Translations under genes and position numbers: made by a program
Part shown: positions 697-59,473 of the stretch, piece after piece
Layout of the letters: the number at the start of each line of letters is the position of its first letter
Numbering within the stretch: position 1 is the first letter of the stretch
DNA from: Bugula neritina
Lineage: Eukaryota > Animalia > Bryozoa
DNA length: 64,000 nt
Assembly: GCA_964035545.1 (NCBI GenBank)
Contig: OZ037772.1
Span: 1,240,001 to 1,304,000, forward strand
Direction of reading: 5' to 3'
Notes under the pieces: model-generated
Databases searched by the model: none
What the model was told of the DNA's origin: nothing
What the model saw: the letters and a program-made list of their open reading frames with translations, nothing else

Positions 697-1001
697 TGTT
701 ATAATTTTCAGTTTAGGGTTGATATGCTATCCAGAGAGTCTATTTATCTAGTATAGAACTGCACCAGGCTAAGTCGAGTGAACGAGTATATTTTATTCAC
801 AACTATACATCATAAAAACACGATACATTATTTCTAACAAGTTACACATCTAATCTATTTCACACTCTAGCTTCGACTGAGTTAGCAGCGGGAAACTACA
901 ATTGCTGCTAACTATCAACTACGCTAATTGGCTATCCATTGTTCCGGGTCAATTACGCGACCCTACATGTTGTGCTGCTGGTAGTTCCACGAACCACCAC
1001 A
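697..1001 (-). repeat. 3' LTR of Gypsy A copy 1 (TGTGG...TAACA on minus); AATAAA at 797-792
   Basis: Direct repeat of 7883-8187, preceded on the minus strand by the PPT. Confidence 0.97.
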
Positions 1002-1032
1002 CCGCCCCCACCAGCAGAAAGCCATCTTTCTG
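1002..1032 (-). promoter_or_regulatory. Polypurine tract (GGTGGGGGCGG, 1012-1002) preceded by hairpin CAGAAAG-ATGG-CTTTCTG (1032-1015)
   Basis: G-rich tract abuts the 3' LTR. The same arrangement occurs in copy 2 and in family B. Confidence 0.85.
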
Positions 1033-1280
1033 ATAAATATATATAAAAACATTCAATAGTAATTGCATACATCAGTGGACAAAAATAATACATAATATAC
1101 AGGAAGAGACATAATAATACACAGAGTCGTTATAACGATCCGTTGCATACAATTGGCCAGCTGTAGATAGACGAGGAATACTAGCTAGCTGTGGTATTAG
1201 ACAAGGAATAACCTGTCTAGCAGTTAAGCATTTGCACGAGTTTGGTTCTTCACCAAATGTGGAGTATTCTGGATATGTAT

Positions 1281-2357
1281 CTAGAGTCCTTGTTGGGCAC
1301 GCCGGTGCTTGGCTTGGCATGTACGCAGTTTCCGTTTCATACGGCATACGGATCCCTTCAGCTGGAAGAGTCCTGTGGTAGTGTTGAGTAGATCTGGCGC
1401 CAGCTGGGTGAACTCTTCTTGTAATCGTAGGAGGCGTTCTTCTACTGTAGCTAGTCGTACTGGGTCTGGGGACGGTGTCCGTCTGCGGCGTAATGGTGGA
1501 CTGGGGGACCTGGTCCGTCTCTTCGCCGGGGTAGGGGAGATCTCTCCTTCTTCTGGATATGTAGTTTCCTCGGGGGTGTAGGAAATGGGAGGGCGGTCAG
1601 ACACCAACGGGGATTGTTGGCGGGCGTTGTCTAACACACTTTGGAACCCCGAGGATAGAACGGCTAGTAGCATGGCCTTCTTTACCAGAGGTCGTATATA
1701 TGTGAGGAACTCCGGGTACAGCTTAGCGTCGACCACATAGTTTTCTCCAGGGAAACAGCCCGCCGCTCTGTGTCTGGTGACGGGGTAGGGATACACATCA
1801 TTGTACCCGCAGGGGCAGAAGGTCAGTAGGAGATGAGCGTTGACGTGTAGTTTGAGGGAGCGGTGAGAGGCGCAGTCTTCACCACAGATCTGGCATCTCG
1901 TCCGTCCTCTGGACCCCCAGGCTGTTTCTATTTCTTCTTCGGTTTGTGGAGACACCCACCGCCAACGACGGCGTAGTGGCTCAGGCCGGTCACCACTAGA
2001 ATAGTCCTCCGGATACGGAGCGGGAAGTGTTCTATCCCGTACCCTAGTTGTAGCGGGTCGAGTGTAATCTGAAAAAGTTTCAACAGTGTTAGTACATTAC
2101 ACTGCTGTGTTGTCAGCTTGAACAGCTTGGCAACTCCTAATTCAGTTACCTCGTAGAGATTAATGATAGTGAATAGTCAGATAGAACCGTATTGCAATGA
2201 GATTATAAAAATCTCTAAGTCAAACTAAGTTCTTACTACAGTATTTCACTAACCTATCTCCAGCTCGATTGACTCAGTGAGTCAGAGCTGAGCGATGCAA
2301 TCTAGTTTCGTATTAAGATATAGTTAACTCACCCCACGATCTGTTGTGGTAAGACAT
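1281..2357 (-). CDS. ORF3 accessory protein (C2H2 and CxC..H..C zinc fingers, Arg/Ser/Pro basic patch, coiled coil); predicted spliced model join(2357-2333, 2068-1281), 270 aa
   Basis: Motif CQICGEDCASHRSLKLHVNAH..FCPCG..RHRAAGC. ATG lies 25 nt after the pol stop. Donor G|GTGAGT, branch point TACTAAC and acceptor TTTTTCAG| are phase-1 compatible. Homologous to 15363-16832. Confidence 0.8.
2261..2290. promoter_or_regulatory. Palindrome with two AP-1 consensus sites (TGACTCA-G-TGAGTCA) inside the predicted ORF3 intron
   Basis: Sequence cagctc-gat-tgactca-g-tgagtca-gagctg; identical at 31263-31292. Function is inferred only. Confidence 0.4.
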
Positions 2358-2381
2358 ACTGAATATGTGAAATGGTTTGAA

Positions 2382-5300
2382 CTACTGCTTAGAAACACGT
2401 CTACTCTTGACTGCATCAGCGTATGAAAAGATCGAGCAACGTGGTTGGGGTGCGTGATTAAGACTTTGTGCACCCGGCGGATGAATTTTGTTCCTACTTC
2501 CGCCGATACAAAAGTTGATATTTCCGTGGTGTTGACAACTCCCACATTTGCTCGATTCTTTTCTCGTACGGTTTTCCCCTAGACTTTCATGTGTGCCGCT
2601 TTTAACGCAGTCACATACGAAGTCCTTCAAGTATGCGGGGGGTTGCCTCGTACGCTGTCCCCTTTCTAGGGGGGGTGACACGCTTGCCGGTTCGTTAGTA
2701 GGGGCCTCTAATGGCGTCTCTACTTCACCGTCAGCAGTCACCTCTTCTTGTTCTCCGGATGGAGCCCCTCCCTCCGTGGGGGTTTGCACTTCCGGAACCG
2801 GCTCGGTTTCTGGAAGTGATGGAATTAGACTTGGCGGTGGCGGACACGCTTCTGTTGCCAGAAGCTGCCGCTCCTCTCTCACCAAGTTTTCTTCCCGCGG
2901 TATGACCACTTCGTATTCAGGTCCATGCCGCCGTCGCCCGCGCGTCGTTGTCTGCCTCCTGGGCTCTAACAACGGGGGGCTTCTCCCACTCCGCCGGGGC
3001 TAGCCCAATACGGTTTCAAGCGAGACTCATTCTGGATAGACACCTGTCCTGAGCGCTCAATCTTGTACGTATGATTGGGCATGGCCTCGACGACCACGTA
3101 GGGGCCTACGAACTTAGGCTTCAGCTTATCAGCCTGTCCGCGGCGCCTACGGTAATTGACCATCCACACCTTATCTCCTCTTTGATAGAGGGGTGGTTCA
3201 TCGGAATCTTCGTGCCGCACCTTCCACTGCTGTTGACGCAGTATCTCGTGTGCGGCCTTCATCCGTTCCACTAGTTCACTGGCATACTCGTGGACTGAGT
3301 TATCCTGCTCTGGAACGTGATAGGTGAGATGGTCAGGGACACGAGTCTCTCTCCCGAGCATCAAGAGGTTTGGGGTCTCACCAGTACTGGTGTGTGGGGT
3401 GCTACGGTATGCACGCATGACTTGCGGCAACACCGTATCCCATTCCTCTTGACCTCGTCCAAGGAGGAGACTCCGGAGCGCATCACCTAACATCCGGTTG
3501 TTGCGCTCCACCACCCCGTTACCTTGAGGGTGGTAGGGGGTGGTCCTGCTATGATTTACTCCCCAGAGGTGGCAAAGGTCGCTCATCAGTTGAGACTGGA
3601 ATTGAGCGCCTTGATCAGAGTGTATCTGTTCGGGAAGCCCAAAATAACAGAATACGTGTTGGTCTAGTGCCCTGGCCACTGTTGGGGCTGATGCATCTGG
3701 GATAGCCAGAGCATCCGCCCACCTAGTAAAGTGGTCGGTTAGTACTAGGATCCAATTATTGCCTCTGGGGGTCAGGGGCATGGGTCCGACCAGGTCTACA
3801 GCGACTACTTGCCAGGGCCTACCAGCATATAGCCTCCGCCGTCCTGCTTCACCAGGGGGGCGGCTATGCTTACTGGCCTGGCAGATCTCACACTGTTTGA
3901 CTCTGAGCCGGACGTCACGCTCCATCTGCGGCCAATACCACCGGAGTCGTAATTTGGACATCACTCGCTTGACCCCTGCGTGGGCCTGCTTGTGAGTATC
4001 CCAAATCAACTCACGGCGGATGGCTGTGGGGCAGACTACCCTCTTCCTTTCCGGGTGTCTGCCGCTGGCAGCTAGAGAGATGGTTAGCAACCCATCCTGC
4101 CCGATCCGCAGCGAGTCCCAACGCTGACAGTATAGCCGGAATTCGGCGCATCCCTGTCTTATGCGTTCCTCGCTGGGTCGTCGCCCTTCCCTTTTGGCCC
4201 GGTAGATGTCTGCCACGACTCCAGGCAGCTCTTCTTGGAGCTTCTTCAGCTCTCGAACATTACCGGCCAGTACAGGGTTGGCGCGGAGGTTTTGTATATC
4301 CTCCGGGGACTCATCAACTCTTTGCCTGAGTTGACCTTGATCCCAGTCAAACGGTGCTCCGTGATGAGCCAGCGTCTCCAACTCGCATCGAGGGGGACCT
4401 CCATCCCTCCTCTCGATGTTGAGACACTGTTTGCAACCTCCGTCAGGTCGGCGGCTCAACCCATCCGCATTGCTGTGTCTCTTGCCCGGTCGGTGTTCGA
4501 TCCGGTACGAGAATTCAGCTAGGATTTCGAGCCACCGGGCGACCTGACTAGAGGGCTCTGCTCTCCTGCACAACCAGATCAGCGAGGCATGATCCGTACG
4601 CAGCCGGAACTTCCTGCCATATAGGTATGGTCTGAAGTGCTTCACTGACTTGATTACTGCCAGCAGCTCCTTGCGGGTAGTGCAGTAATTTCGTTCAGCG
4701 GGAGAGAGAGACTTGCTGTAGTAGGCTACTACTACTTCTCGGCCTTCCTGCACTTGTGACAGCACAGCGCCAACATTCTGGTCACTGGCGTCCGTGTCTA
4801 GGATGTACTCCAGAGTGGGGTCTGGGTAGGCCAAGATGGGCGCCGTTAGGAGGCAGCCCTTGAGGCGGTCGAACGCTTCTTGTTCGACTGGAGTCCACTG
4901 CCACGTCACTCCCTTTGCGGTAAGCCGGTTTAACGGCTGGGCTATGCCCGCAAAGTCTGGTATGTATTGCCTGTAATACCCTACCAGCCCCAAGAAAGCC
5001 CGGAGTCCGGTCAAGTCTTGAGGGGTGACCCAGTCTTCTACTGCCCGTACCTTTTCGGGATCCGTTGCCACGCCGTTTCGACCGACAACGTGCCCCAGGT
5101 ACTTGACCTCCGGCTGCAACAGAGCGCACTTGGAAGGTTTGAGCTTAAGACCGGCACCTCGGAGTCTCTCGAAAACCTCCTGCAGACGACTGACATGTGT
5201 CTCGAAGTCTGGAGAGATTACGATGACATCATCGAGGTAGACCAGCAGTGTCTTCCAATGGAGTCCGCTAAGGACTTGTTCCATCAGCCTCTGGAAGGTG

Positions 5301-6949
5301 GCTGGGGCGGAGGTTAACCCGAAGGGCAGCACCTTCCACTTCCACAACCCGTCCCGTGTGATAAACGCCGCTTTCTCTTGGGCGTCGGGACTCAGAGGAA
5401 CCTGCCAATAGCCGCTTAGCAAGTCTAACGTACTGAAGTACTTGCTGCCGGCTAGGGCGTCCAATGACTCGTCAATACGAGGTAGAGGGTAGGCGTCCTG
5501 TATGGTTACGCTATTGAGTTTGCGGTAGTCCACACAGAACCGCCAACTGCCGTCTTTCTTCCGGACCAGTACGACTGGCGAGCTCCACGCACTATGGGCG
5601 GGCTCTATCAGTCCCCGGTCCAGAAGATCCCGTACTTGTCGGCTAACCTCCTTCTCTTTCTCCGGCCCCAGCCTGCGTGTGGGCTGCCGGACAGGGACTG
5701 TCCCTGCAGTCAGCGGTATTTCGTGTCTGACAATTCCAGTCAGTCCCACGTCATGCTCTCCGCTGCTGAACACATCACCGTAGTCGCGTAGTAACTTGGC
5801 CATAGCTTGGCGCTCTCTGTTACTCGCGCAGCCACCACTGGCCGTCTCGTATAACTCCCGGAGATGTGTTGGGACTGCCCCTCGTCCCTGAATAGGGTGT
5901 CGAGGGGGGGCCTCTGTCGCATCACTCAGCGACGGGCCTACGTCTCCCTCTTGAACAGAGTGAAAACGGCCCAGCATCGACCCAGCCGGGAGCTTGATAG
6001 GCTCGGTAAAGGGGTTGACGCACTGCACTAAGATCTCCCCTTGCTCAGTCAGCTGATTCAGACTGCTGGCAAGTTGGATCTTTTCGTGCGCGCCTTCAAC
6101 CACCCCGAGTCCAGAGATCCGGCTACTATTCACCCTGCAGTGAATGGTAGCCCGGGAGCGGCCTGGTATGGTACGGTTGCGTACCACTTGCACACCTCCC
6201 ACTAAAGGGCAGCCGAACTTGTCGACGCAGGCAAGTTCCCGCCCGGACATCATCATTGCAGATCTGCTAAAATCTATGTGACATCCGTGCCGTTTAAGGA
6301 ACGGCATCCCGAGGATAGCATCCTCCTTGAGCTGACTGACGATGAACGTCTCTTGGATCGTTTGATCGCGGACTCGTCCCGTCAGCTCAATTATACCATA
6401 GAAGGGAAGGCACGACCCGTCAGCTAGGGTGCCGTATTCCCCTTCGTATGCTTCCATCTCGCCCCTGACCCTAGCACTGAGGGTGTCGAAGAGTTGGCGG
6501 CTTAAGAGGTTCGTGGTACAGCCCGAATCAATGAGAAAAGTAACAGCTTTGCCTTCCAGTTTACCGGGCAAGAAATAGCTGTTCCCATGGGGCTGCACCT
6601 GAACTCTCCCTTCAGGCCTGACTCTCGCAGGGAGTACCTCCCTCGCTTTGGGTCGCGAAGGAGGTCTCTTGGGGCGGTGATAGGTAGGCCTCGGGGGTGC
6701 CGAGGCTGGTTTCTCAGCTACCTTTGTGTGCTCCCATCCAGATTCTTGGACTTGTAGCCCTGTGAATCTGTTGTGAAGGGGCATAGAAAAGGCAGCCGCG
6801 GGGCGAAGCCCCTTGCTGGTCCGTCGCGGCTGTTGCCACTGTTGGTTGCCAGTACGCGGTGCCCGTCTGGGTGACCTGCGTTTCTTCTTCCCTAGAGGTT
6901 TCGTCGGCCCGCGGAAGGTGGGAACATCTGCGGGCCGCGGTAGTTTAAC
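2382..6949 (-). CDS. pol: Gypsy pol (protease, RT, RNase H, integrase); a 1-bp deletion at 2974-2979 removes the last ~196 aa of the integrase tail
   Basis: LIDSG protease, YLDD RT, TDAS RNase H, HHCC plus D,D35E and GPY integrase motifs. G6 run here versus G7 at 31976-31982 in copy 2. Confidence 0.95.
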
Positions 6950-7851
6950 CCCTGATTTAGGAAGGGACAATATCGGCGGAAATGTCCTTGATTTCCGCAC
7001 TCCCAGCAAAAACTGACTGTTTCTCCCTGTGGCGGCGCCAATGGCCGCATGGGCTCAGGGGCGGTACTCACTGGGTTTTGTGGGGTCAGTGTTGCTATCA
7101 GCTTGGCTAGCATGTCCGTCAGTTGAGTGACTTTTGATGCCGTCGCCAACTGGGACACGGCAGCCGCGGCGGGGGTTTCCTCCCCTTGTCCCGCGGCCGT
7201 GTCTGCGCGGTCTATCTCCACTTGGCGGGAGCTTCCGCGACTTTTATGCATTTGGTTAGCTAGGAGGTAAGCTTCCCCCTCAGTCAGAGCATCTTCAACG
7301 GTGGTGACTCCCCTAGCTAGAAACTGGTGGTGGAGACCCAGATCGTCGACAGATGCTATGAAAGCGTCGAGGGTGTACCTCTCGCGGTTGACTGGGGGCA
7401 AGTCGCTGTATGCGATCTGTGCCAGCTTCATGACCGCGGTGGCATGCTCCCGCAGCGGGGTGCGGGGATCACGCCGCAACCTCTGTAATCGGGCCCTGGC
7501 ATCTGTAGTCGAGAGGCCAAAACGGGCCCGCAGAGAAGCAAAGATATTATCAATGTCTACGCCCAGCCCATAGGGCTTGGCTTTGTCCATCAATGCCATT
7601 CTAAGCTTCAGCAGCGCCACCCTAGGGGGCCACTGAGCGACGTCCATTACGTCGCTAAACTCTTGAATAAATTGTTCCACCTCCTCTTCACCCGTGAAGG
7701 TGGGCGCCTTTAACCTGTAGCGGTCTTCAGCTAGTTCTCGCGGAACCCTTCGCTCTTCTACTACATGGTTAACAGGCATTGTCTCTACAGCATTGTCTCT
7801 ACGCTCACCTTCGATTGCCGGTGGTTGAGTTTCAGCATTTTCAGTCTCCAT
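6892..7851 (-). CDS. gag: Gypsy gag, 319 aa, with CCHC zinc knuckle
   Basis: CWECGNQGHFRRYC knuckle; ATG just downstream of the PBS; overlaps pol in the -1 frame. Confidence 0.95.
   Translation of the reverse strand: METENAETQPPAIEGERRDNAVETMPVNHVVEERRVPRELAEDRYRLKAPTFTGEEEVEQFIQEFSDVMDVAQWPPRVALLKLRMALMDKAKPYGLGVDIDNIFASLRARFGLSTTDARARLQRLRRDPRTPLREHATAVMKLAQIAYSDLPPVNRERYTLDAFIASVDDLGLHHQFLARGVTTVEDALTEGEAYLLANQMHKSRGSSRQVEIDRADTAAGQGEETPAAAAVSQLATASKVTQLTDMLAKLIATLTPQNPVSTAPEPMRPLAPPQGETVSFCWECGNQGHFRRYCPFLNQGLNYRGPQMFPPSAGRRNL
6905..6949 (-). promoter_or_regulatory. Predicted -1 ribosomal frameshift signal: G_TTA_AAC, 5-nt spacer, GC-rich hairpin
   Basis: Heptamer at 6949-6943 is in the gag phase and pol is in the -1 frame. 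Stem CGGCCCGC...GCGGGCCG at 6937-6905. Confidence 0.75.
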
Positions 7852-7863
7852 CTTGGATGCACT

Positions 7864-7881
7864 ATCCCACTGCTGCCACCA
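7864..7881 (-). promoter_or_regulatory. Primer-binding site TGGTGGCAGCAGTGGGAT (tRNA-Leu type)
   Basis: 18 nt starting TGG, one base after the 5' LTR; near-complementary to the 3' end of metazoan tRNA-Leu(AAG/TAG) as I recall it. Confidence 0.85.
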
Positions 7882-7882
7882 C

Positions 7883-8187
7883 AGTTATAATTTTCAGTTT
7901 AGGGTTGATATGCTATCCAGAGAGTCTATTTATCTAGTATAGAACTGCACCAGGCTAAGTCGAGTGAACGAGTATATTTTATTCACAACTATACATCATA
8001 AAAACACGATACATTATTTCTAACAAGTTACACATCTAATCTATTTCACACTCTAGCTTCGACTGAGTTAGCAGCGGGAAACTACAATTGCTGCTAACTA
8101 TCAACTACGCTAATTGGCTATCCATTGTTCCGGGTCAATTACGCGACCCTACATGTTGTGCTGCTGGTAGTTCCACGAACCACCACA
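7883..8187 (-). repeat. 5' LTR of Gypsy A copy 1 (U5 end mutated CA>CT)
   Basis: Apparently identical to 697-1001 except for the terminal base 7883. Confidence 0.97.
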
Positions 8188-10906
8188 ATAACTCACGCTC
8201 AGTAATTGCACAAATTACTACAATATTATAATGATAATTATTATATTTATTATATTATTATTGAATATATTATTTCATTAGAAAATAGGTTGCAGCTTAG
8301 CATGATTAAAATTCAGTAAAAATTAGTTTACCAACAGCAAACATGCATGCGTCTTGTCAACATTCAATTCGTAGTGTCATAGCGAAGCCAGATTACTGGT
8401 AGTACGACTACTAGAACTACTACTACTAGTGATGGATTACAGATCCTTGGCGATTTTAGCTGTGAGTGACCTTCACCTCACATTCTCGTCATGTGCGCGG
8501 CATTAGACTAAGTAGAGGGTATGAAGCACTGAGCTGGAATAGAAAGAATATATTTTAATTATAGGTAATACTAATAGTAATATAATTTATGGTAATATAT
8601 AGGTAATATTATTGAGTTCATTGGTATGGAGTATAGACCTATCACTGATAGTATCAGTATCAACTACCACTTACGTACTACTTCAACTTATGACTTACCT
8701 TCAACTCCAACTCAAACTGAAACTGCTTGGAATCATTTGTCTTTGATCATATTGGCATTGTCATTGTGATTGTAATAACTATTAATATTTTTAGTTCAAC
8801 ATCAATGCCGAACATATTGTAATAACTAATAAGATAATCATAAGGTTGATATATTTTGCTAATACTAATACTAATAGTTATAGTAATAGTTATAGTAATT
8901 CAGTGTCACTCTCACTCTGGTGGAGTGAGACTCAGACTTAGAGTTAGAGACAGAGTGAGTCCGAGTAAGTCTGAGTGTTGGTAATAGTAATAGTCATATA
9001 AATTTAAATTATATTTACTTATTTCTAGCAATCACAATGGCAATAGTTATAGTAACTTTCACTTACTCTTAAATCTTTGAACCTGAACTAAAAGTAAAAT
9101 TAAGCATTATCATTATGATTATCATTATGATTATACCTATGATTTTATTATGTTTAAATTAAAAATCAATATCATGATAATATCATAGTGATAGACATAT
9201 TATTGATAAATGATAATATAAAAGTAATTTGATAAATTATACATTGATTTTGAATTAAGGTGATACTGATACTAGACCGGTACTGAAAGTGATAGTAATA
9301 CTAATAGTAATAGTAATAGTCATATAAATTTAAGTTATATTTACTCATTACCGGCAATCACAATGGCAATAGTAACTTAAACTGTAACAGTAATGGTATG
9401 GGTATGTTTGAAATTGTCACTATCAGTATTGCTATGAATCAAAATATAATGCTATCATACCAATAATTTAAAATAATATTACAAAGCTTCAGTAGCAACT
9501 TTTACTTGTACCAGTTTGGAATTTTGAATTATACATATTCTTAGTTAAAGTCTTCAAGTTTATTGTCAAAATGAACTTGAAATTAAAGACTTAGTAGTAA
9601 AAATTAAACTAAGACTGACTGTAAGTGACTAAGATTAAAAATAAGTAATTTTAAATATCGATTTAGTATTTTTCTTACTCTTTGTCTTAAAATTGACTTT
9701 TATTTTGCACCTACTCCTGGTCAATGATTCTTTTTTCTATTTATATTACTATTGCTATTAGTATAATTGACTTAAATTTAATAATAGATATGATTGTATC
9801 TTTATAAATGTGATATTTGATTTTATGAATAGTACTTCGAAAACTCTTTGGTATTATTTATTTTTGATCATTGTAGTTATTATCATTATATTTGTATAAT
9901 AATTATGATTATCAAATTCAATATCGATATTTGTATTATGGTATGGATATCTGCCTCCATCCCATGTTCTGTTTTGCAGTGCCTTTTTACATTCACGTCT
10001 AGGTTCACATTGCGATGGTCATACTGATTGCACTTGGGGACAGTGATGAGCATAATGATTATCACTAATATTAGGATTATCGTTATTAGGATTTAGAATA
10101 ATTTAATAAACAAGCAACTTAAAACAAATGTTTTTACTAATATACATATTAATTACTAATATAAATATACTACTATGAATATTATAATTATTATACTTTA
10201 CAATTCAAAGTAAGATAATCATAATACGAACTGGTAAAACTAAATATAAAGTAAATGTAATAATACTAATAGTAGTTATCCATTCCCCTTTGGTTTCACA
10301 TACTAATAATTGGAAACCTCTGTCCTAATATTATTTCTATTAATATTGCTCAAAGTTTGATCCCTATTTAATTTTATAGTTCACTCACCAGCTACATAAT
10401 TTTATTAAAATACATGTGGTATTGGTTATAGTACTAGTGAAACTTGAAGTTGAATAGCATGCTTATTACTCACTGCTCTTTGCTTACATTATTAGGGTTA
10501 CTCTTTAGTCTTAGAGATACCCTAACATAAACTTGAAAGCTGGAGGTAGTACTAGTCTAGTGCTGTGTTAATCCTACACTGTTGACTTATCAACACTGTG
10601 ACTATAATTATGACTCCTAAGTCAAAGTCATTTTCATATAGTAGTAATCACTATGACAGACTGAAAGTCAGGAAGACTAAATATAATGGTAAAGTGTGTA
10701 AGAATAAATCATACTTAATCAATTACTTTTAGTTTTGTTACCAGTGTTGGGTCAACTTTCAGAATAAAGAATAAATATAATTATAAAGATAAATGGATAA
10801 AAATTCCAATCATGGTTTAATGTGCCTATTTTAAGCTGTTAATTTAATTACTATAATATAAGTGCTCAAAATACAACTTTTGATTTTCATAATTATGTTT
10901 TAATTT

Positions 10907-13900
10907 CAGTATATATTTTCCTAGAATGTTGTTTAGAGACATAAAAAAACTGCCTATGCACAACATACTTTGCATCTGTTTAGTATCTCGTAACAAGACA
11001 TAAAAAAATCAAAGCCAATTATAAGGCAAAAGACCATAATACTGTACTATCATTGGATAGTTCTTCATCAATAAACAGGTAGTCGCCAGTGGTGGATATG
11101 AACCCCTCCTAGATGTTTCTCGTACTTCTTCCTCAAAAAACATTTTCATTAAGCCAAAAAGAAATAACAATACACCTTTTTAGTTGACACTTTTTAATTT
11201 CTGACTGATATTTCACCTTATTTCCAATTATAATTAACTTTTAACCGGCACTTTTCTTTGTAGTAATTCCTACCCTTTAGACTGTGTACTTTGAAATGAG
11301 TCTGTTTTACTCGTTACATAAAGTATAGTTGCACTGGCTACAGGTTGACACAAAAGCAAGCCTATCTTGATAAAGTCATGCGCAAATGTAGAAACTACCG
11401 AGGAGTTTGTTCCTCATAATTAGAAATTGACAAATTATTTTTAATCCGTTTAAAAGCATCTGGTTAGGGAAGCATATGCCGTGTTCAATTTGTTATTCTA
11501 GCATTAACAATAACAGAATGCAATAATTATAAGTTTATGAAAGTAATTTGTTTTCTTTCTAATTACAAATATAATACTTTAGTATATATTGTAAATTTAT
11601 AAGGCTTGCATTAGGAATAACGCAGCTAAAACATCATTTTCCTTAAAGTCATAAAAATATATAAGTATAACATAATACACTATGCCAATAAACTTATTAA
11701 AGTACCAAGCAAGCTTAGCTAGTTTAAGAAAAATTACACTAGGTAAATTCCCATTGTTTATAGAATGCTTGCTGATATTAGCTTTTGATGTAATTAAAGT
11801 AAATTATTATTTATCTTTCTAGCTAAGGATTTCTTGCCGTAAGTTTTGTTTTTATGCGTGGAGAAATGTCGTAACAAACGAGTTAATTTTTTATAGCACA
11901 TAAAAATGTAATCTATAAGTCGAAGATATTTAAACTTAGCCATTAACTCATTTTAATTAGCAATGTAGCCTAAATCTAATACAATACAAAATATATACCA
12001 GTATATATAATATATTTTTACCATGCTGTTAATTACAGTATTTGTAAAACAAATTTTATGCTCATTAATTAAATGCAACAAATATTTATAAAATACTAAT
12101 AATGTTGAATAAATTAATTCAATAATTCCTTTTCTATTTAAATGGCTGCATAATTTCTTGCAAGGTTGTATAAAGGAGTTGTGGCCCACAACTTATTATG
12201 TGTTCAATTGCCACATATGTCTTAGGAAGAAGAAAACTCCCCAAAAATTCTTGGTTTGAAAATTCTAGTATAATTAAAATCACTTAATATATGTCTTTGA
12301 AATGCATTTTGCCACTCTGCAAAATTGCAGGAACAAATATTGCATGAAGTAATAAATGATTTATGAAGTAATTAACAAACCAATGTAAAAACTGTTGTTG
12401 TATATAGAACACAACATATTGATTTTCTTCAATTTCCACATCAAATCTATATATTCAATTATATCTAACCAATGCTAATAAACTAAACATGCATGCATAC
12501 AAATATTTGCATCATATGCAAGTAATATTAGCTAATTAGCAACTATAGCATTTTTTTCATTATCTTTATTGCTTGCATATGTCTAAGTATTATTAAAATA
12601 AGGTTTTTATTTGCAACTTTGCACCACAAATTACATAAAATCTAAAAACTTGAGTTGTGACATAGGGCTACCTATACACAAATAGACCTTCATAAAACTC
12701 TCAATGATTTTATTCAACTCATGTATGCAAAAGTTTTGCATTAAAACAATTCTTCTAAATCACCCTAGAGCAGGAAATTATTACAAAAACAGCTTCTCAT
12801 ATATAATCTTTCTCCAGATTAATTTTTTTTCCTGTATTTAAACTAACTTAGCAAGTGAAGATTGTGATATCACTCAGGTAATCACATATATATTATTCAT
12901 AGCTGTAATACTTTAGCAATGAATAGATCATGTTTAATTTCCACTCTACCTAGCAGTTTTTCAGAATTATAGAGCTATGTATATCGTGAAATTGGAATAG
13001 CCTAATAGTTTTACATGTGTTTATAGCTAGACAAATTAACTTAAAAAGCTTACAATAATTAGATGATATTTGCATTCTTTTGAAGGTTATGGTGAAGCTA
13101 CTGCAAAACTGGCCATTAGTTTAGCATAATATGCAATGCCACGCAAAAGCATGCCAAACAAGCAATGTTTATTTACCTTACCAGTGCAATTTTATCACCT
13201 TAAACACAAAAGCAAGTATAAAATACACATCCATATTAGATTAACTGTCAAGTTAAAAAAAGACAACATATATTCATGAGCTGGTTCTGTTTGCACAAGT
13301 ACAATTTAGACCAGCTTATTATTTAGATTGCCACAAAAATATGACGTAAAATATGTTTTTAATCATTATTTTGATATTCACTGGTTGAAGATATTTTTTA
13401 TATCCTAATATGTAAATATTGTACATAAATCTTAAAAATTAACTAGGTGAATAAGGAAAACTGCTAATTTTATGAAACTGTTATGTTAATAAAGACAATG
13501 GCTATCAACAAATCCCACCAGACCACAAACTAATTGTAAATACTAAAGCAATTATATAGTGCTATGTGTTGATCTAGCCTAGTCAATACACCACAAATAT
13601 GTATTATGACATACCACATTTTAAGTACTGGGTTACCATTTATTCTAATGGGTATTTGTTTAAACTGTTATATACAGCTTTTTGCACTACCAATATACAA
13701 GCCAGTTGTTATTCTGTCACTTTTTATCTACATCTCTTTTTAATGCCAGTTACTTGTTAGCTTCAGTACAAACAGCTAAACATTCTACTCTACAGCCAAT
13801 CTTACTGTTAACTCTTGTTTAACAATATTACAAGAATCTAAAAATTTGAGTGTGTTTTAAGTATAATATTCTATCATTATAACTTTTAAATGAAACAATA

Positions 13901-14011
13901 ATAATATGATAAATGCATTATAACTTTCTGACAAGTTTTTTTGCAAAGTATATGTTTTTGGAAAATAGTTTTACAACATTTGCTAGGAGCATTATATTTA
14001 TTCCTATCTAA
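10907..14011 (-). mobile_element. Second copy of the right end of the giant element (inverted copy of 52271-59473 without the ISL2EU insertion)
   Basis: Begins exactly at the TIR CAGTATATATTTTCC. Collinear and highly similar to 59473-52271, with the empty AT site near 11419. Confidence 0.93.
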
Positions 14012-15298
14012 GCTAGCAAGCATGGCCGCCCCACGGAAACCACTGGTCGACGCCGGCTGTACGCTGGTCGACCGTGGCAAGTAGTGGCGGTAGACCTCGT
14101 CGGGCCTATGCCGTTATCCGCCAGAGGAAACAACTGGATACTGGTGCTCACGGACCACTTTACCCGGTGGGCAGATGCTCTGGCTATTCCAGACGCCACC
14201 GCCCCCACGGTGGCCCGGACCCTGGACCAACATGTATTCTGTTACCTCGGTTTGCCCGAGCAGATACATACAGACCAGGGTGCCCAGTTCCAGTCCCAGC
14301 TCATGGGAGACCTCTGCCGGATATGGGGGGTGAACCAGAGTCGGACCACCCCATATCACCCGCAAGGGAACGGAGTCGTCGAGCGGAACAACAGGATGTT
14401 GGGTGACGCGCTCCGGAGCCTGCTGCTTGGTCGAGGTCAGGAAGAATGGGACGTGGTGCTGCCGCAGATCATGCGGGCTTACCGCAGCACACCACACTCC
14501 GCCACGCAGGAGACCCCAAACTTCCTGATGTTAGGCCGGGAGACGCGGATCCCGGAACACCTGACGTACCATGTTCCTGCCCCCGAGTCACCGGTACACG
14601 AATATGTGGAGGGTCTGATGGACATCATGGGCAAAGCTCATGATGCGCTGCGCACACAGCAGTGGCAGACCCGCACCGAGGACTCAGAGGAGCCCCCGTT
14701 GTACCAAGTGGGAGACTGGGTCTGGATGGTGAGTTACCGTAGGCGGCGTGGACAGTCGGCTAAGCTTCAGCCCAAGTTCGTCGGCCCCTACTGCGTAGTA
14801 GAGGTGCTGCCCAACCACACATACCGTGTGGAGCGCTCTGGACAGGTCTCTGTCCAGAGCGAGCAGCGCCTCAAACCTTACCATGCCAGCCCAGACGCGG
14901 TGGGTCAGGCTTCACCCCTCTTGGAGCCCCACCATCAGCCCAACCGTCGTGGACGGGCCACCCGGCCCCGTGAGGTGGAGATCATGGTCCCCAGGGAGGC
15001 AGACCAGGAGCAAGCCGCCCTGATAGAGCAGCTGGAGCGACAGCAGAGAGCGGAGCGGGAGCAGGAACAGCAGCAAGCCCTTGGCTCACAACCCTTCCCG
15101 GGGGAGGACACCCCCACCCCCGTACGGGGTGAAGACGGGGACCCCCCTACCAGGGTAGCCCAGGAGCCACCAACACCACCAGAGTCTGTTCCACTTGAGA
15201 GGAGCCAGCGGCCAAGAAGACCTCCCAGGTACCTGGCAGACTATGCTGTAGGACACCTGGAGGGGCCCCCTCCTGAGGAAGACCCCCCCCCACACTGA
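14012..15298 (+). pseudogene. pol: Integrase core and C-terminal part of family B pol (5' part deleted)
   Basis: AVDLVGP, HTDQG, NGVVERNN, GPY and RRPPRYLADY motifs. The frame stays open after TGA 15296-15298 until TAA 15461-15463. Confidence 0.93.
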
Positions 15299-15362
15299 CT
15301 GCCACCCCATCTTGGTTGGGAATTCCCTCCATCACCCCGGAGAATTCCACCAAGAAGAAGAA

Positions 15363-16832
15363 ATGGCCGACCGAATTTCGGAAGACACTCGATTACGCGA
15401 GTTGTCTCCTCGAAATCCGGGGGAAATTCCCACGAGCCACGCGACTCGGGCTTCAGCAGGTAAAACTTCTGAAGCACGAGGTTCGGCCATTTCTCATTCT
15501 GACTTCACACAGCTCGCACGGCAGTTGCAACTCAAACTAAATTCTGATTCTAATACTCATTTTGATTTTACCACTATTCTCCGTACGCTATCAGCGGCTA
15601 TGGGGATCACTCTACCAGATACACAATCAGGTATTTCTTCTAGATTAGATCCTCCAGTTGCGGAGTCTAATCAAACTACAGTAGACTGGTCTTTACTAGA
15701 TTTACTTGGTTCTGATATCTTAGGACCGGAGGCCGAGATGGATCTCGGAGATGACTCTGCCATTGATACATTGTTGAATCACGATGTAGGCTCAGTCAAT
15801 TTCTGCGATACACCTCGGCCCTCGGTTTTTAACTTATCTCCATTCACACCTGTGCCAAATTTCGGCGATAGTGAGACCGGCTTCTCACAGCCTCTACTAT
15901 CTATTCTAGAGGAGCGAATGGACGTTGAGGAGGCCAGTCGGTCCGACTCCCCTCCCCCACCGGGCCTTGCTTCGGCTTCTACCAGCCAGCAGGCCGTCAC
16001 CTCCTCCACAGAGGTGTGTTCCGCCATGGTTGGCCCTGACCCCAAACCGGTCGAGCTTCAGCTCACGGCCGGGGAGGAGCAGGGCATCCTACACGGCGAC
16101 CACCTGCCAGCAGAAGAAGATGCCTCCCCAATACTGGCCCTGCCTCGGGCCCTGGTCGCCCGCCAGTATTGGGTGACTGGACCCACCAACCTAAAAATTG
16201 GTGATGCTTGCGGTGAGCCGGGCAACCGCATCTGCCATGAGTGTAAGAGGAAATTCTCCTCTGCACGGCGGTTGCGCGTACACGCCCCTCAGCATTACAT
16301 CAACGTGTTTTGCCCGTGTGGGGAGTTCTCCTACCAGAGAGACTATGTGTTGAGACATCAGCGCATAGCTCACTGCCACACGGGCTACACGTTTGCTGTA
16401 GACCAGGCCTCCTTTCCCGAATTTTGGGACCTGGTGCTGCCACACGTGGCGGATCCCCACAAACGGGCTGCTCTCGCCCTGGGATTCCCCGCGTGTAGGC
16501 CTGTTCGGGAGGAAGAAGGGGAGCCCGCCGCGACACCCCAACCGGCAGCCACCCAGCCACTTCGGGTCATGCTGGCACGGGTCGGACCAGGTGCCAGGGC
16601 CGATTCATCGGACCTGGGCCCCCGACCCTCGGCGGCGGGCGAGAAGCAGACGCACCGCCAGCGACGTCCTGCCCGTGGTACTACCGACCGCCCTAGGCAC
16701 CAGACGTCAGCTCAGTTGGCAGAGGAGGTTCACCAGTTACGCCGGCAGCTCCGCAGATATGAAGAGGAGCTGGGGCAACTCCGGAGACGAGTTAGCCGCC
16801 TGGAGCGGGGTCGATCTGGCGACCGCCGCTGA
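15363..16832 (+). CDS. Family B ORF3 accessory zinc-finger / coiled-coil protein (489 aa unspliced)
   Basis: CHECKRKFSSARRLRVHAPQH..FCPCG..RHQRIAHC..VD..FPEF..LGF aligns with family A ORF3. C-terminal heptads LAEEVHQLRRQLRRYEEELGQLRRRVSRL. Confidence 0.85.
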   Translation: MADRISEDTRLRELSPRNPGEIPTSHATRASAGKTSEARGSAISHSDFTQLARQLQLKLNSDSNTHFDFTTILRTLSAAMGITLPDTQSGISSRLDPPVAESNQTTVDWSLLDLLGSDILGPEAEMDLGDDSAIDTLLNHDVGSVNFCDTPRPSVFNLSPFTPVPNFGDSETGFSQPLLSILEERMDVEEASRSDSPPPPGLASASTSQQAVTSSTEVCSAMVGPDPKPVELQLTAGEEQGILHGDHLPAEEDASPILALPRALVARQYWVTGPTNLKIGDACGEPGNRICHECKRKFSSARRLRVHAPQHYINVFCPCGEFSYQRDYVLRHQRIAHCHTGYTFAVDQASFPEFWDLVLPHVADPHKRAALALGFPACRPVREEEGEPAATPQPAATQPLRVMLARVGPGARADSSDLGPRPSAAGEKQTHRQRRPARGTTDRPRHQTSAQLAEEVHQLRRQLRRYEEELGQLRRRVSRLERGRSGDRR

Positions 16833-17135
16833 GACTATTTGTGTAGTTTTTTTTTCTTTTCTTTTCTACTCTTGTTCTTTGTTGTTTATTATATGTGTGT
16901 AAGTGCTTCATGTAATGCATGTACCTATTCATGCTCTGTTTTTCTTGTGTGTGCACAAATCTTCCCTGTTTTTTTTTGTGTTATCATTGTATTATTACTA
17001 TCACTGCATGTTTACCATATTTTTTTTTCGTGTGTTGCTTTCAACTGTGTGTTTTATTGTCGTGTCATTCCCTGTTGTGTGTTTGTGTTGTGTACGCCTC
17101 TTTATCGGAAAGCATGCTTTCCGATGGGGGGTGTG

Positions 17136-17460
17136 TGTGGTAAATTTATGTTGTGTGTGTGTGTCCTTTGTTGCCGAGATCGGTACTTCGGTCCTCCGAA
17201 ACACCGATATGCCGATTCTCGGCATATCGGAATACCGAAGTACCGAAATGCCGGATTCGGTATTTCGGGTCTCCGATCTCGGCAAACAAAGGAATGTCTT
17301 TGTCCTGCATGTATATAAAAGCCAGCGAGTTCCAGTATAGTTCAGTCTACTACTGGAGCTCGCTGGATAAAGACCATTGATTCACTCGGACTATACTACA
17401 ATAAAGATTATCTACATTCTACCTTATTTCTCGCCTTGTTTCTCATACAAGCATGTAACA
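17136..17460 (+). repeat. 3' LTR of family B, with palindromic array (17164-17293), TATATAAA (~17312) and AATAAA (17400-17405)
   Basis: Follows the PPT; TG...CA termini resemble family A; Academ coding sequence resumes at 17461. Confidence 0.85.
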
Positions 17461-19402
17461 GCACTAGTTTCATTCACAATCCACAAAACTATCACAATAG
17501 AGCACATCTATTGGGCACTCCGTCTAATACGCTCTTGTGCTTTAATTGATGTTTCAGAATACACGTCAAACACTACATCAACCCTTGTATATCCTTTGCC
17601 ACATTCAAGAAATATTTCCAACATCTTCAGAGCATAGCTATAAAAAGTGCCTGATGTTTTTGTCGAGTGAAGTATGCACATACCATCAATAATGATCGAT
17701 TTGTTGGTGGACAGTTGACTATCATCATTAGAGACCCTGTTTCCAAGATATTTCTGTTCCAAAATATGCATTAGTTGCAATTTGCATGTTTTTCTCATCT
17801 GTCCGTTTTCAGTAAATAGAGCAAGAGGGATGGGACCAATTTCTTTCTCTAGAACTGTATGCAAATCTTTGGCACTTTTGGCACTTATGAGGTTTAGCAA
17901 ATGATATTTTAGGAACATTTGGTTTAATGGCCGGTTGAAGTGATTTAGCCACAAAGTCAAAGGAAGGGATTTTAAGCCGGTGAATAGCAGTGTAAAATGG
18001 TTTTATTGTATTCAAAAGTCTATCTTGAAAAAACTTTTGAGCCATTTCTCCTCCCTGAGCCATAGCAGTCACTATTGACAAGGAGGTCTCCGCATCGGGA
18101 CTTACTCCAGTAGCAATATTAATAAGTTCAGTTGAATTATTGCTAAACAACTCAACATCAAACTGCTGCAATGTAAAAAGAATTGCTTGTATATCAATCT
18201 CATCCGTCATAGTTGTAAGGATTGTGTCTTCCTTGTGTAGTGTTAATGACTGTGAGGCTATTTGGCAAAAATCCTTTTGCAAAGAAAGCAGCTGGGCTCC
18301 GATATGACTAGTTAAGAACCATTTTGTCCGAGCTTCTTCATGGTTGCTAATGCCAATAATGCCTCCAGATGTTTTACTGTCTCGGTTCAAAGTTTGCTCC
18401 AAGACCTGATCTGGAGCCATACCTGCAATTTTTTTTCCTGTCCTGTTTATGGTGAATGAACCCTTTGCAAACATTCCATAAACTTCTGGAGCAGATTCAG
18501 GCAAATTTAGCATATCAATAAGGTATATAGGCAGCCACCTTGAATAGTATGTGCGATCATACGCAAAAAATACTGGTAGCATTGCCTGCATACTGTCCAT
18601 ATATAATTGCCAGTTGCCACTACGCTCAGCTCGAATAAATCCCAACATGGCTTCTACTGCATGAAGGTAGGAATTCCAGAACATTGAAAGGTTAGATTTT
18701 AATTTAGTATCAGAATCAAGCTTTTTATAACAGTAGCAACTTTATCTGCGACCGTGGTCCATTCACGTAAGTTATCATCAATAGAAATATTATGAGAATC
18801 TAATGGGTCAAACTGATCATTTTCTTGGAGCCATTCCGAAAGAGATTTTAGTTTCTGCCTTGATATTGCCTCATACAAAATCTTGTGCGCCCGTACACCT
18901 CTGTTATAATGCTTACCACATAGCACCTGTTTCACTGTAACTTCAGAATATATATCACTGTGTACAAGAACTTGGGCGAGGCCGCTTGATTTTACCATTT
19001 TGCCAAGTGCTGCCATGTAATTCATCAAGATATGAAAACCGCCCATTTGAATTATTGTGTTTGAAAATTCAGTTGGTTTGTTCCATTGAATCTCTTTGGC
19101 AATCTTGTAAATAGCTTGGTCAAATGTAATTACTGAATGTTTCTGATTTAAAACTTTCATAGTTTTCTTTAGCTGCAGAAGGATTGTATAAATTGTTGAT
19201 GGATCTGTTGATGGTGCATTAATCATTGGGCAATACCCAATGACTGATCTTTTATTATCTTCTGTGGCAACCAAATTTCTTACATTAAAGCTACTCCAGC
19301 TGGGGCAGTTACGTGTAGAAGGACTTATGTCCAATTGAAATAGTTTGATTGGGGCAAGTCTTGCCAATAGCCACACTTTTTCATATTCAGCAATGTCTCT
19401 TG
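17461..19402 (-). pseudogene. Academ transposase plus start of XPG/PIN-like nuclease domain (frameshifted)
   Basis: FDQAIY, MGGFH, KHYNRG, RSGNW, FAYDRTYYSRW, DQVLEQTLNR.K.GG, IIDGM and RVDVVFDVY..SIK..ER.RR motifs across three broken ORFs. Confidence 0.85.
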
Positions 19403-19403
19403 A

Positions 19404-28032: not shown

Positions 28033-29697
28033 ATTTTAAGGTCAATCAAAATCAAGCAAAGTTCATCGTCATATTGCTTACTGCTTAATGGTGCAGCTTA
28101 TTTTTGCTTACCAAGTTTCTTTCTGCAGAATAATTGTAGCTAGCTTCTCGATTTGCCATCTTTATTCCAGTCCAGGTTCAAATGACATCTTGATCGTTGC
28201 AAATATCCATGCAAGCTAAAAAATATTTATCAATCAGTACAACAACAGAAATACTTACAATGATCCAAATATTACTATTACATTACTATAACATTACACA
28301 GTAACACTATGTTTATAATTGTAATACGGAAGCATGACTTTGTGGTAGTTTGATATGCTATAGCAAAAGGTAGAAAAATCAACTGAAAAACCGACAGAAA
28401 TAATCAAGTACAATTAACTAAAGTAAATAAACTTACTGAATAGTAAATATTTTACTATACTTAGTGAATTGATTTACTTCCACTAGGTTTACTTTCATGA
28501 TTAAATGCTTCTGTCTATTTTCCAGTTTATAGGAATATATTAAAAGTGAAACCAATTATAATTACTATTACCTTATCTAGTTTTGACTATATGTTTTTCA
28601 CAAATATAAACATAGTTATATGCGTATTCCTATTGTGACTGCAGATACCATTGCGGTAACTGAAATCAAACTTCATTCTACTTCAAGTTTCAAACATTGT
28701 CCTAGTTCAAAGACTAACAAGTGAATAATTAATAACTGTGAAAGCTCCAATAAGTTACTTCATTATTAAATAAGATACAACTGATTCTACTGTATATGAT
28801 ACTATGGTATCTGTATTAAATTAAAACATGATTATGAAAATCAAAAGTTGTATTTTGGGCACTTATATTATAGTAATTAAATTAACAGCTTAAAATAGGC
28901 ACATTAAACCATGATTGGAATTTTTATCCATTTATCTTTATAATTATATTTATTCTTTATTCTGAAAGTTGACCCAACACTGGTAACAAAACTAAAAGTA
29001 ATTGATTAAGTATGATTTATTCTTACACACTTTACCATTATATTTAGTCTTCCTAACTTTCAGTCTGTCATAGTGATTACTACTATATGAAAATGACTTT
29101 GACTTAGAAGTCATAATTATAGTCACAGCGTTGATAAGTCAACAGTGTAGGATTAACACAGCACTAGACTAGTACTACCTCCAGCTTTCAAGTTTATGTT
29201 AGGGTATCTCTAAGACTAAAGAGTAACCCTAATAATGTAAGCAAAGAGCAGTGAGTAATAAGCATGCTATTCAACTTCAAGTTTTACTAGTACTATAACC
29301 AATACTACATGTATTTTAATAAAATTATGTAGCTGGTGAGTGAACTATAAAATTAAATAAGGATCAAACTTTGAGCAATATTAATAGAAATAATATTAGG
29401 ACAGAGGTTTCCAATTATTAGTATGTGAAACCAAAGGGGAATGGATAACTACTATTAGTATTATTACATTTACTTTATATTTAGTTTTACCAGTTCGTAT
29501 TATGATTATCTTACTTTGAATTGTAAAGTATAATAATTATGATATTCATAGTAGTATATTTATATTAGTAATTAATATGTATAATAGTAAAAACATTTGT
29601 TTTAAGTTGCTTGTTTATTAAATAATTCTAAATCCTAATAACGATAATCTTAATATTAGTGATAATCATTATGCTCATCACTGTCCCCAAGTGCTAT

Positions 29698-37169: not shown

Positions 37170-38269
37170 CTATCAGTATGACCATCGCAATGTGAACCTA
37201 GACGTGAATGTAAAAAGGCACTGCAAAATAGAACATGGGATGGAGGCAGATATCCATACCATGCTACAAATATCGATATTGAATTTGATAATCATAATTA
37301 TTATACAAATATAATGATAATAACTACAATGATCAAAAATAAATAATACCAAAGAGTTTTCGAATTACTATTCATAAAATCAAATATCACATTTATAAAG
37401 ATATAATCATATCTATTATTAAATTTAAGTCAATTATACTAATAGCAATAGTAATATAAATAGAAAAAAGAATCATTGACCAAGAGTAGGTGCAAAATAA
37501 AAGTCAATTTTAAGACAAAGAGTAAGAAAAATACTAAATCGATATTTAAAATTACTTATTTTTAATCTTAGTCACTTACAGTCAGTCTTAGTTTAATTTT
37601 TACTACTAAGTCTTTAATTTCAAGTTCATTTTGACAATAAACTTGAAGACTTTAACTAAGAATATGTATAATTCAAAATTCCAAACTGGTACAAGTAAAA
37701 GTTGCTACTGAAGCTTTGTAATACTATTTTAAATTATTGGTATGATAGCATTATATTTTGATTCATAGCAATATTGATAGTGACAATTTCAAACATACCC
37801 ATACCATTACTGTTACAGTTTAAGTTACTATTGCCATTGTGATTGCCGGTAATGAGTAAATATAACTTAAATTTATATGACTATTACTATTACTATTAGT
37901 ATTACTATCACTTTCAGTACCGGTCTAGTATCAGTATCACCTTAATTCAAAATCAATGTATAATTTATCAAATTACTTTTATATTATCATTTATCAATAA
38001 TATGTCTATCACTATGATATTATCATGATATTGATTTTTAATTTAAACATAATAAAATCATAGGTATAATCATAATGATAATCATAATCATAATGATAAT
38101 GCTTAATTTTACTTTTAGTTCAGGTTCAATGATTTAAGAGTAAGTGAAAGTTACTATAACTATTGCCGTTGTGATTGCTAGAAATATAATTTAAATTTAT
38201 ATGACTATTACTATTACCAACACTCAGACTTACTCGGACTCACTCTGTCTCTAACTCTAAGTCTGAGTC

Positions 38270-54862: not shown

Positions 54863-55880
54863 AGACCATGTAAAACTCAGCCAATCAGCGAAGTGTACCA
54901 GGTCAATGTCTTACCATTGTAACTGATATAAAATTCTGCAAGTTCAATTGCAAAATGCATGCTTCTAAAAGCTAGTTGTGCAACTTTTTTTTCATGCATT
55001 ATTTAATTTCATATCTTAAATTGATGACTCTTGAAATGATTTTTTAAAATGTCTAAATTAAGTGTTTATAAAACGCAATTAAAAATTGCATGTCTAGAAA
55101 AATGACCTGGTACACTTTTGCAACTTAAAGCCAATTATTACATAACTGCCAGCTTAGTAGTTATTTGTTGTTGCAGCTTGAATGGGTTATTGTTTAGCAT
55201 TGGAAGCTTGCAGTAAACATCTGTGAATTTGGTACATGACTTTGATTGGCTGGTTTTTGAATGGCCCTTTAGTATATGCATCTGGATGGCTGGGTAGTGT
55301 GGACTCCGCCTACATCTAGCTAATGTACAGTAGCCAATCCACAGTAGTATTACAAAATTTCTGTTTAACAAATGAAATATTCTGGTCATTTGTTTTGTAC
55401 TTTACAATCGTAAATATTCTATTCAACTAGAATTTTATTGTATGTAAGCCATGGGAACTACTAAGAGGTTAAATCAACCACCCATGCTGGTAATATTGTT
55501 GCTCGCAGTAATAGCAAGTCCACACCATATAAATATACACATAAGCTATTATGTGCAGCTTATGAATGCTGAAGTGACCCCATTTCTTACTTTCAATTTG
55601 AAAAAATTGATAGTAGTCAGTTTCTGCAGCAGTCAACTGCATCCACAATAAACAACGTAAGCTTTCAAATAAACTATAAATATATGAAATATTAGTGTGG
55701 AAACAATGTAATTTATTCATTGCTATGATGAAAAATTACAAGAATATTATATAAAAGCTAGATATAGATTTCTATAAAATGGCACAGGTAAAAATAACAC
55801 ATTTTTACTTCAAATTCTAAATTTCATCAGTCACCAATGGTGGCTGTAGATTACAGAGAGCACAGCAAACTATCATAATC
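54863..55880. repeat. Left arm of ~1-kb inverted repeat (partner 57885-58959)
   Basis: Near-identical reverse complement of the right arm; this arm has a 57-bp deletion near 55609. Confidence 0.95.
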
Positions 55881-58959: not shown

Positions 58960-59473
58960 ATTATGAGGAACAAACTCCTCGATAGTTTCTACATTTGCGC
59001 ATGATTTTATCAAGATAGGCTTGCTTTTGTGTCAACCTGTAGCCAGTGCAACTATACTTTATGTAACGAGTAAAACAGACTCATTTCAAAGTACACAGTC
59101 TAAAGGGTAGGAATTACTACAAAGAAAAGTGCCGGTTAAAAGTTAATTATAATTGGAAATAAGGTGAAATATCAGTCAGAAATTAAAAAGTGTCAACTAA
59201 AAAGGTGTATTGTTATTTCTTTTTGGCCTAATGAAAATGTTTTTTGAGGAAGAAGTACGAGAAACATCTAGGAGGGGTTCATATCCACCACTGGCGACTA
59301 CCTGTTTATTGATGAAGAACTATCCAATGATAGTACAGTATTATGGTCTTTTGCCTTATAATTGGCTTTGATTTTTTTATGTCTAATTACGAGATACTAA
59401 ACAGATGCAAAGTATGTTGTGCATAGGCAGTTTTTTTATGTCTCTAAACAACATTCTAGGAAAATATATACTG

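Follow-up and report, generated by a model that had tools for sequence, protein, structure and literature searches.

A Ty3/Gypsy LTR retrotransposon of the bryozoan Bugula neritina carries a third gene (ORF3) behind pol, which encodes a protein with zinc-finger-like motifs and a coiled coil and probably depends for its expression on a splice of env type that joins a donor near the start of gag to an acceptor directly before ORF3. The element lies in the window, the whole 64,000-nt stretch of DNA analysed here. The original prediction for this locus was a 264-nt spliceosomal intron splitting ORF3. Its branch point and acceptor, the non-coding nature of the segment and the need of ORF3 for splicing all hold up, but the donor at 2332 is probably not the main route, and the 264 nt would instead make up the non-coding 3' part of an intron of 5,740 nt.

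Structure of the retrotransposon

The element is about 7.5 kb long and is found twice in the window, both times on the minus strand, in copies that are 98.2% identical.

697..8187, minus: Ty3/Gypsy LTR retrotransposon copy 1, from its LTRs, Pfam domain order and best PDB match
7883-8187 and 697-1001, minus: LTRs of copy 1, TG...CA type, 305 nt
7864..7881, minus: primer-binding site (PBS), from sequence
6892..7851, minus: gag, with a CCHC knuckle, overlapping pol in a different frame
2382..7054, minus: pol, with protease, RT, RNase H, integrase, an SH3-like end and a low-complexity tail
1281..2068, minus: main exon of ORF3, 261 codons after the junction codon
29698..37169, minus: copy 2 of the element, with target duplication ATAG

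TG...CA LTRs, a PBS, a PPT and a short target duplication place the element in Ty3/Gypsy (Metaviridae), as does the Pfam domain order protease-RT-RNase H-integrase in pol. The best PDB match of pol is Ty3 Gag-Pol, with the RT closest to Ty3. We take the PBS to be of tRNA-Leu type. Copy 1 is flanked by a 4-bp target duplication (TTAT) and is young, because its two LTRs are the same except for the last base; one LTR of the two copies has a 20-nt deletion. The pol of copy 1 is frameshifted near 2973; that of copy 2 is frameshifted too, and a stop interrupts exon 2 of its ORF3.

The 264-nt segment

2069..2332, minus: AT-rich non-coding segment, putative 3' end of a long intron, perhaps spliced separately as a 264-nt intron as well
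2333..2357, minus: possible short exon 1 with its own ATG, 25 nt, phase 1, followed by the near donor GGG/GTGAGT at 2332
2069..2108, minus: branch point TACTAAC (2094-2088), short T tract and acceptor CAG, from sequence and homologs

The signals first described for this segment are all there: GTGAGT at the start, TACTAAC 26 nt short of the end and TTTTTCAG at the very end. Donor and acceptor are both in phase 1, as claimed, and exons 1 and 2 together make 270 codons. U2-type signals (GT donor, branch point, pyrimidine tract, YAG) are present from 2332 to 2069, ordered and in phase, with the full strict set recovered in 8 of 5,000 shuffles and a loose set in 254 of 5,000. The ATG said to lie close behind pol is at 2357, 24 nt from the pol-frame stop at 2384-2382, and exon 2 indeed has no Met upstream of the fingers. 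The segment was also correctly described as an AT-rich island (GC 0.37 vs 0.54–0.57 in coding parts). In this clade the spacer between pol and ORF3 is generally AT-rich, even where the near donor is lacking. The in-frame TAA reported for copy 1 is accompanied by further stops; stops occur in all three frames of both copies, with six in the ORF3 frame of copy 1 and five in copy 2. Copy 2 keeps every signal (31334-31071), as had been noted, which is weak evidence because the copies are so alike overall; within the 264 nt they differ at four positions (1.5%), against 1.4–2.0% in coding parts.

DNA run X2 represents many copies of the element (summed depth 8,000–70,000 vs ~100 for single divergent contigs, depth not being equal to copy number). 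In this run six sites within the 264 nt have single-base indels, whereas the adjoining coding sequence, 223 nt in all, has no such site (p 0.03). The deepest X2 contig here carries one of these indels itself, so the length of 264 nt being a multiple of three is incidental. Low variant counts at ~2150-2205 coincide with a dip in depth and were excluded from conservation. The segment folds more stably than shuffled sequence (z = -2.68; 2/200 shuffles), a result for a single sequence without covariation and so not proof of an RNA element, and a search of Rfam at E 1 gave no match.

The acceptor before ORF3

Comparison with homologs indicates that the predicted acceptor before ORF3 is real and conserved. 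The exon-2 start is reached by 29 of 86 close ORF3 records, in which the preceding residue is S in 25, L in three and E in one; S and L are compatible with YAG because TCAG or TTAG would give them. These homolog signatures are back-translated and come from related rows, so the counts are not independent events. Upstream of the exon-2 start, subfamilies are homologous yet read in different frames, as expected of non-coding DNA. X2 has no listed variant at 2069-2122 (54 nt), whereas 119 nt of exon 2 have 10 (p 0.03). A hairpin of 9 bp is predicted around the branch point, which lies partly in its loop and partly in its 3' arm; the hairpin arms are compatible in all six testable unjoined homologs (by back-translation, 2–10/300 shuffles each; three records starting inside the 5' arm left out), while the loops vary and no compensatory change in the arms was seen among the homologs.

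A probable donor near the start of gag

7809..7851, minus: start of gag (43 nt, 14 codons plus 1 nt), probable first coding exon of ORF3, from the join in P0031
2069..7808, minus: putative long intron of 5,740 nt from the gag donor to the ORF3 acceptor, from a homolog record

The key record is P0031, an ORF3 homolog from a sister subfamily and the one record with E before the exon-2 start. Its first 14 residues, which resemble no read-through of the intron, are the Gag N-terminus of P0212, from the same subfamily, and run directly into the D-H-T-R of the exon-2 start. Gag itself continues G-E where P0031 has the exon-2 D, a residue that a phase-1 splice would produce from the last G of the donor and the AT behind the acceptor. 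The corresponding position in the window, exactly that of the P0031 join, holds the donor AAG/GTGAGC at 7808, which matches eight of nine consensus positions and tops the four donor-like sites of the element; the near donor at 2332 scores one below it. Copy 2 has the gag donor as well, after 36811. Among Gag homologs, 55 of 101 rows reach the donor codon, one of them a misaligned integrase piece that was dropped. In the remainder the donor codon is G, S or R in 51 of 54 rows, all residues whose codons can carry GT at positions 2–3, and the next residue is E in 54 of 54, while nearby columns vary and the peptide before the donor codon is variable in both sequence and length. A conserved donor near the gag start and a conserved acceptor before ORF3 are found in equal phase.

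P0031 is the one joined Gag-ORF3 product on record among the 29 records that reach the exon-2 start; it is known as protein only, forms a cluster of one, and belongs to a subfamily ~54% identical in ORF3. A deletion could also account for P0031, given the 2-nt microhomology (AG) between donor and acceptor. No 2068/7809 joint was found in X2 among the 15 of 51 joints listed. RNA run X1 has a word share of 0.16, and its coverage stops short of both junctions.

Alternative routes to ORF3

The near donor at 2332 deserves attention as a site, since it is beyond chance: when a real acceptor was assumed and the spacer shuffled 10,000 times, 242 shuffles produced a GTRAGT together with an open ATG exon in phase 1, and 39 of these had the G in front as well. 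If the 264-nt intron were spliced alone, ORF3 would start at the ATG at 2357, by means of an internal promoter or re-initiation after pol. We consider this improbable, and the near donor an unlikely main route to ORF3. Its use at any level is a better prospect, though still doubtful, and such splicing may coexist with the gag splice, the two donors competing for one acceptor. Three of the four segregating variants of exon 1 in X2 are synonymous (one change private to copy 1 left out), and no X2 variant is listed at 2320-2336 (p 0.12). The sister element described below likewise has an ATG, a phase-1 donor-like site, an AT-richer segment and a phase-1 acceptor-like site in the same order, but, judged by eye, no more than ~2 of 5 homolog rows allow its donor-like codons, and its segment remains in frame and coding. 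On erosion of the donor across the family, proposed as the sign that would speak against a short intron, the homologs give a mixed picture. P0024 (49% identical) starts V-S 88 codons before the D, at most 2 nt from the donor position, and is compatible with a kept donor; a GTGAGT kept there says little because the whole 264 nt is recognisably conserved in this record. Against this, two divergent contigs of X2, which have a loose end at 2309, carry a changed GT, and the donor is absent from a distant family of four loci. None of the 29 records reaching the exon-2 start has an exon-1-like join, and the suggested search for intron-less copies found no 2068/2333 joint among the two joints listed for X2, even though RNA spliced at the near donor should be copyable because it retains gag, pol, PBS and PPT.

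The gag splice that we favour would lose its force if no relevant splicing took place, with P0031 a chance deletion and ORF3 either expressed by internal initiation or the decaying remnant of a former Pol tail. In many close homologs an in-frame Met does occur shortly upstream or downstream of the acceptor position, two loci (L001 and L002) have the domain as part of Pol, and the joined record is a single one. The window family, however, has no Met before the fingers; the P0031 join coincides exactly with a donor and an acceptor that are both conserved and agree in phase; and ORF3 is open, with Cys/His positions conserved over 59 close and ~100 representative proteins. We therefore regard this explanation as very unlikely. 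Slimmer still are the chances of a doubly spliced message of tat/rev type, in which the gag donor would be joined to the CAG at 2359, followed by a 26-nt middle exon and the 264-nt intron. Only 1 nt does separate a TATTCAG, which has a stretch of 24 nt free of AG, from the ATG at 2357 that follows it, but the 26-nt exon shifts the frame from the gag ATG, the sole in-frame upstream acceptor (78-nt exon) runs into the pol stop, a good branch motif at the usual distance is missing, and no record supports the message. Joining the gag donor directly to this second acceptor-like CAG (window 2358-2381, minus) would shift the frame into a short alternative frame of exon 2.

The ORF3 protein

The main exon of ORF3 encodes a finger of classical C2H2 spacing (C-x2-C-x12-H-x3-H), its ligands conserved in homologs, and a second, atypical one (C-x-C...H...C). 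A basic, S/T-P-rich linker follows, and then a C-terminal coiled coil with a confidently predicted helix of ~53 residues. Searching with the exon-2 frame recovered 59 homologs (47–99% identity), and clustering at 50% left 102 representatives. Database matches are faint: Pfam C2H2 hits lie below cut-offs (best E 0.012–0.057), the top Foldseek rows are C2H2 fingers at E 0.29 or worse, Foldseek against PDB and viral models gave no match at E 0.001, and the best hit of the ORF3 profile against PDB sequences had E 1. A wide VIA search matched the C-terminal helix alone, with generic hits of Z up to 6.1, and barely probed the finger region. Scans with ORF3 patterns confirmed no locus in 146 metagenome stretches, in viral sets of 66, 4 and 46, or in 101 genome contigs.

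From its motifs and predicted structure, we expect ORF3 to be a nuclear protein that binds nucleic acid through its fingers and oligomerises through its coiled coil. Regulation of the element's own RNA output would be its likeliest function. Export or splice control in the manner of Rev or CERV is a tentative possibility; the features of ORF3 that bear on it are basic clusters, two loose NES-like patterns and the coiled coil. Transcription control is about equally possible and fits an acidic stretch in the sister ORF3. An integration factor or chromatin tether seems less likely, although the fusion of ORF3 to Pol at some loci fits a role in integration, and we give about the same small weight to some other function.

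An errantivirus or retroviral Env was also considered as an identity for ORF3 and ruled out: none of 37 members matched an env family in Pfam at E 0.1, and inspection of ORF3 revealed no signal peptide, membrane span or anchor, or long hydrophobic stretch.

A sister element and the wider clade

A second family with a related ORF3 is present in the window.

14012..17460, plus: sister-family element, 5'-truncated, with integrase end, ORF3 homolog and 3' LTR
15252-16832, plus: sister ORF3 homolog, open for 526 codons
15460..15909, plus: AT-richer segment of the sister ORF3, 450 nt, in frame, with phase-1 ends CAG/GTAAAA and TTCTAG/

The ORF3 profiles of the two families match with a probability of 99.4% over 123 columns. 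The N-terminal half of the sister ORF3 is acidic and of low complexity, a part lacking in the family with the 264-nt segment, and the structural model of the sister ORF3 is too poor for fold comparison (mean pLDDT 44.8). From its ends, the 450-nt segment is a possible counterpart of the short intron, but it is open and conserved as coding in homologs. Nine of 18 rows of the sister family run in frame through the acceptor-like column, with YAG-compatible residue pairs in all nine (by eye). Two homologs of the sister element, P0282 and P0283, read in frame from the Pol tail into ORF3.

A scan for the integrase located 22 loci, six of them with the ORF3 domain; several of the 16 without an ORF3 match end too early for absence to count. 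At two loci (L001:1694-6928 and L002:980-6262), ORF3 finger and coiled coil form the C-terminal end of a Pol frame of 1,744–1,760 residues. The fused domain at these loci is an integrase tail outside any Pfam family. Their gag start has no donor, so that not all of the clade would share the splice. The other four (L003, L004, L009, L016) have a separate ORF3 with its own downstream ATG behind an AT-rich spacer (GC 0.32–0.33), in which CTAAC...CTGTAG is present and a GTRAG donor is not. Sequence comparison thus presents the acceptor-like signal and the AT-rich spacer as traits of the clade, and the near donor as no such trait. In an integrase tree of 18 rows, the nine ORF3-bearing rows split from the other nine with support 100/100; the tree is midpoint-rooted, omits seven short loci and includes some loci without an ORF3 match that end early, so that the order of events cannot be read from it.

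Several smaller observations concern these relatives. A P-Y-K motif upstream of the finger recurs in distant subfamilies (A2 columns ~265–275; P0086, P0087, P0093, P0112, P0143) and in the Pol-fused form (L001 ~6100), and in one subfamily the upstream part ends in residues compatible with CTAAC...YTAG in phase 1. P0054 and P0073 join a Pol-tail-like peptide to mid-ORF3 and are likely internal deletions. In L005, L006 and L010, which are also related Ty3/Gypsy elements, a dUTPase separates RNase H from integrase; the Pol tails of L005 and L010 extend ~650–700 residues with no Pfam match, and L011 has a 664-codon ORF after pol, also with no Pfam match.

A scheme for expression of ORF3

We propose that a single LTR-driven RNA would carry a strong gag start and donor and a modest acceptor. 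Splicing from the gag donor would remove gag-pol and place 14 Gag residues before ORF3, giving a protein of 276 residues. The weak acceptor, with its five-T tract and a branch point in a hairpin, would leave much RNA unspliced to serve as Gag-Pol message and for packaging. Unspliced RNA would then yield Gag, Gag-Pol and genomes, and spliced RNA the Gag14-ORF3 protein. Spliced RNA would have lost gag-pol and probably, if retroviruses are a guide, the packaging signal, and would seldom be copied back, with P0031 a likely exception. The element would face a balance between spliced and unspliced RNA like that of retroviruses, as originally suggested; the accompanying puzzle of how a small intron survives reverse transcription would dissolve, because a splice from the gag donor would remove gag-pol.

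Splicing from the near donor, for its part, would take out the acceptor and yield a message with gag-pol intact. The junction would fall 49 nt after the pol stop, and the limit for nonsense-mediated decay is 50–55 nt, which puts 49 nt just inside. A bolder scheme, to which we assign a low probability, has both donors compete for the hairpin-hidden acceptor: the far donor would give a Rev-like ORF3, the near donor would lock RNA into a translation-only gag-pol form, and unspliced RNA alone would be packaged. The gene itself would have originated as a zinc-finger tail of Pol that turned into a spliced accessory gene in a widespread invertebrate Ty3/Gypsy clade. If true, this would be a splice switch like that of complex retroviruses in an env-less retrotransposon, evolved apart from CERV.

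Relation to known systems

Introns in LTR elements, spliced third ORFs and a Rev-like retrotransposon protein are already known (PMC3735527, PMC5408684, PMC12992720, PMC10309623). The nearest precedent for the proposed splice is the env of Drosophila errantiviruses, above all those of the idefix subclade: it too is the third ORF and follows pol, and its message arises when a long splice starting inside gag takes out gag-pol (PMC12992720). ORF3 here differs from that env in its zinc-finger-like motifs and coiled coil and in having no env match. For the protein, the closest parallel is CERV of the C. elegans element Cer1, reported as a nematode-only protein of 517 aa from five exons, with a role in genomic RNA export demonstrated by mutants (PMC10309623). 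Both are non-env proteins of Ty3/Gypsy-type elements, made or probably made from spliced RNA, with N-terminal peptides in common with Gag (PMC10309623). CERV also has a Cys-rich putative finger, an oligomerising part and a basic nuclear signal (PMC10309623); unlike it, ORF3 would have one long intron, a C2H2-spaced finger and 276 aa.

The introns of the plant LTR elements BARE1 and Ogre resemble the 264-nt segment in being short, GT-AG and U-rich and in being kept in genomic copies (PMC3735527). Spliced and unspliced RNA pools of these elements serve different jobs and the introns tune Gag versus Pol (PMC3735527), whereas the putative intron segment here lies after pol and would feed an accessory gene. 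LTR elements of bdelloid rotifers offer another invertebrate Ty3/Gypsy group with diverse captured non-env ORF3s, stated to be typically expressed from spliced messages (PMC5408684). Those ORF3s differ in being esterases, exonucleases, membrane or coiled-coil proteins, and the word 'zinc' occurs nowhere in that text (PMC5408684). In the open-access literature searched, we found no description of the finger and coiled-coil family of ORF3.

Where LTR elements have a spliced third gene, it is usually env-like, and CERV is the one RNA-regulating case that we found. Here the third-gene slot is filled across one integrase clade by an unnamed finger-plus-coiled-coil family. Its four arrangements, from fused to Pol to dependent on the Gag start codon, offer a natural series for the gain of an accessory regulatory gene. 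For annotators the case is also a warning: what looks like a flawless short intron in an LTR element can belong to the 3' end of a long intron of env type.

Other features of the window

The window also contains a transposase ORF of the DDE_Tnp_4 type (55817-56641, Pfam E 2e-43) between long inverted repeats at 54859-58963, a unit that is presumably a Harbinger/IS5-like DNA transposon. At 17508-19403 (minus), three adjoining ORFs of 164, 310 and 234 codons have no Pfam match above cut-off and are possibly a broken large transposon gene. Long AT-rich inverted duplications of 98–99% identity link 9078-13903 with 28818-29697, 37172-38122, 52271-54694 and 58960-59473. Copy 2 of the retrotransposon sits between two pieces of this duplication, which suggests that it inserted into another young repeat.
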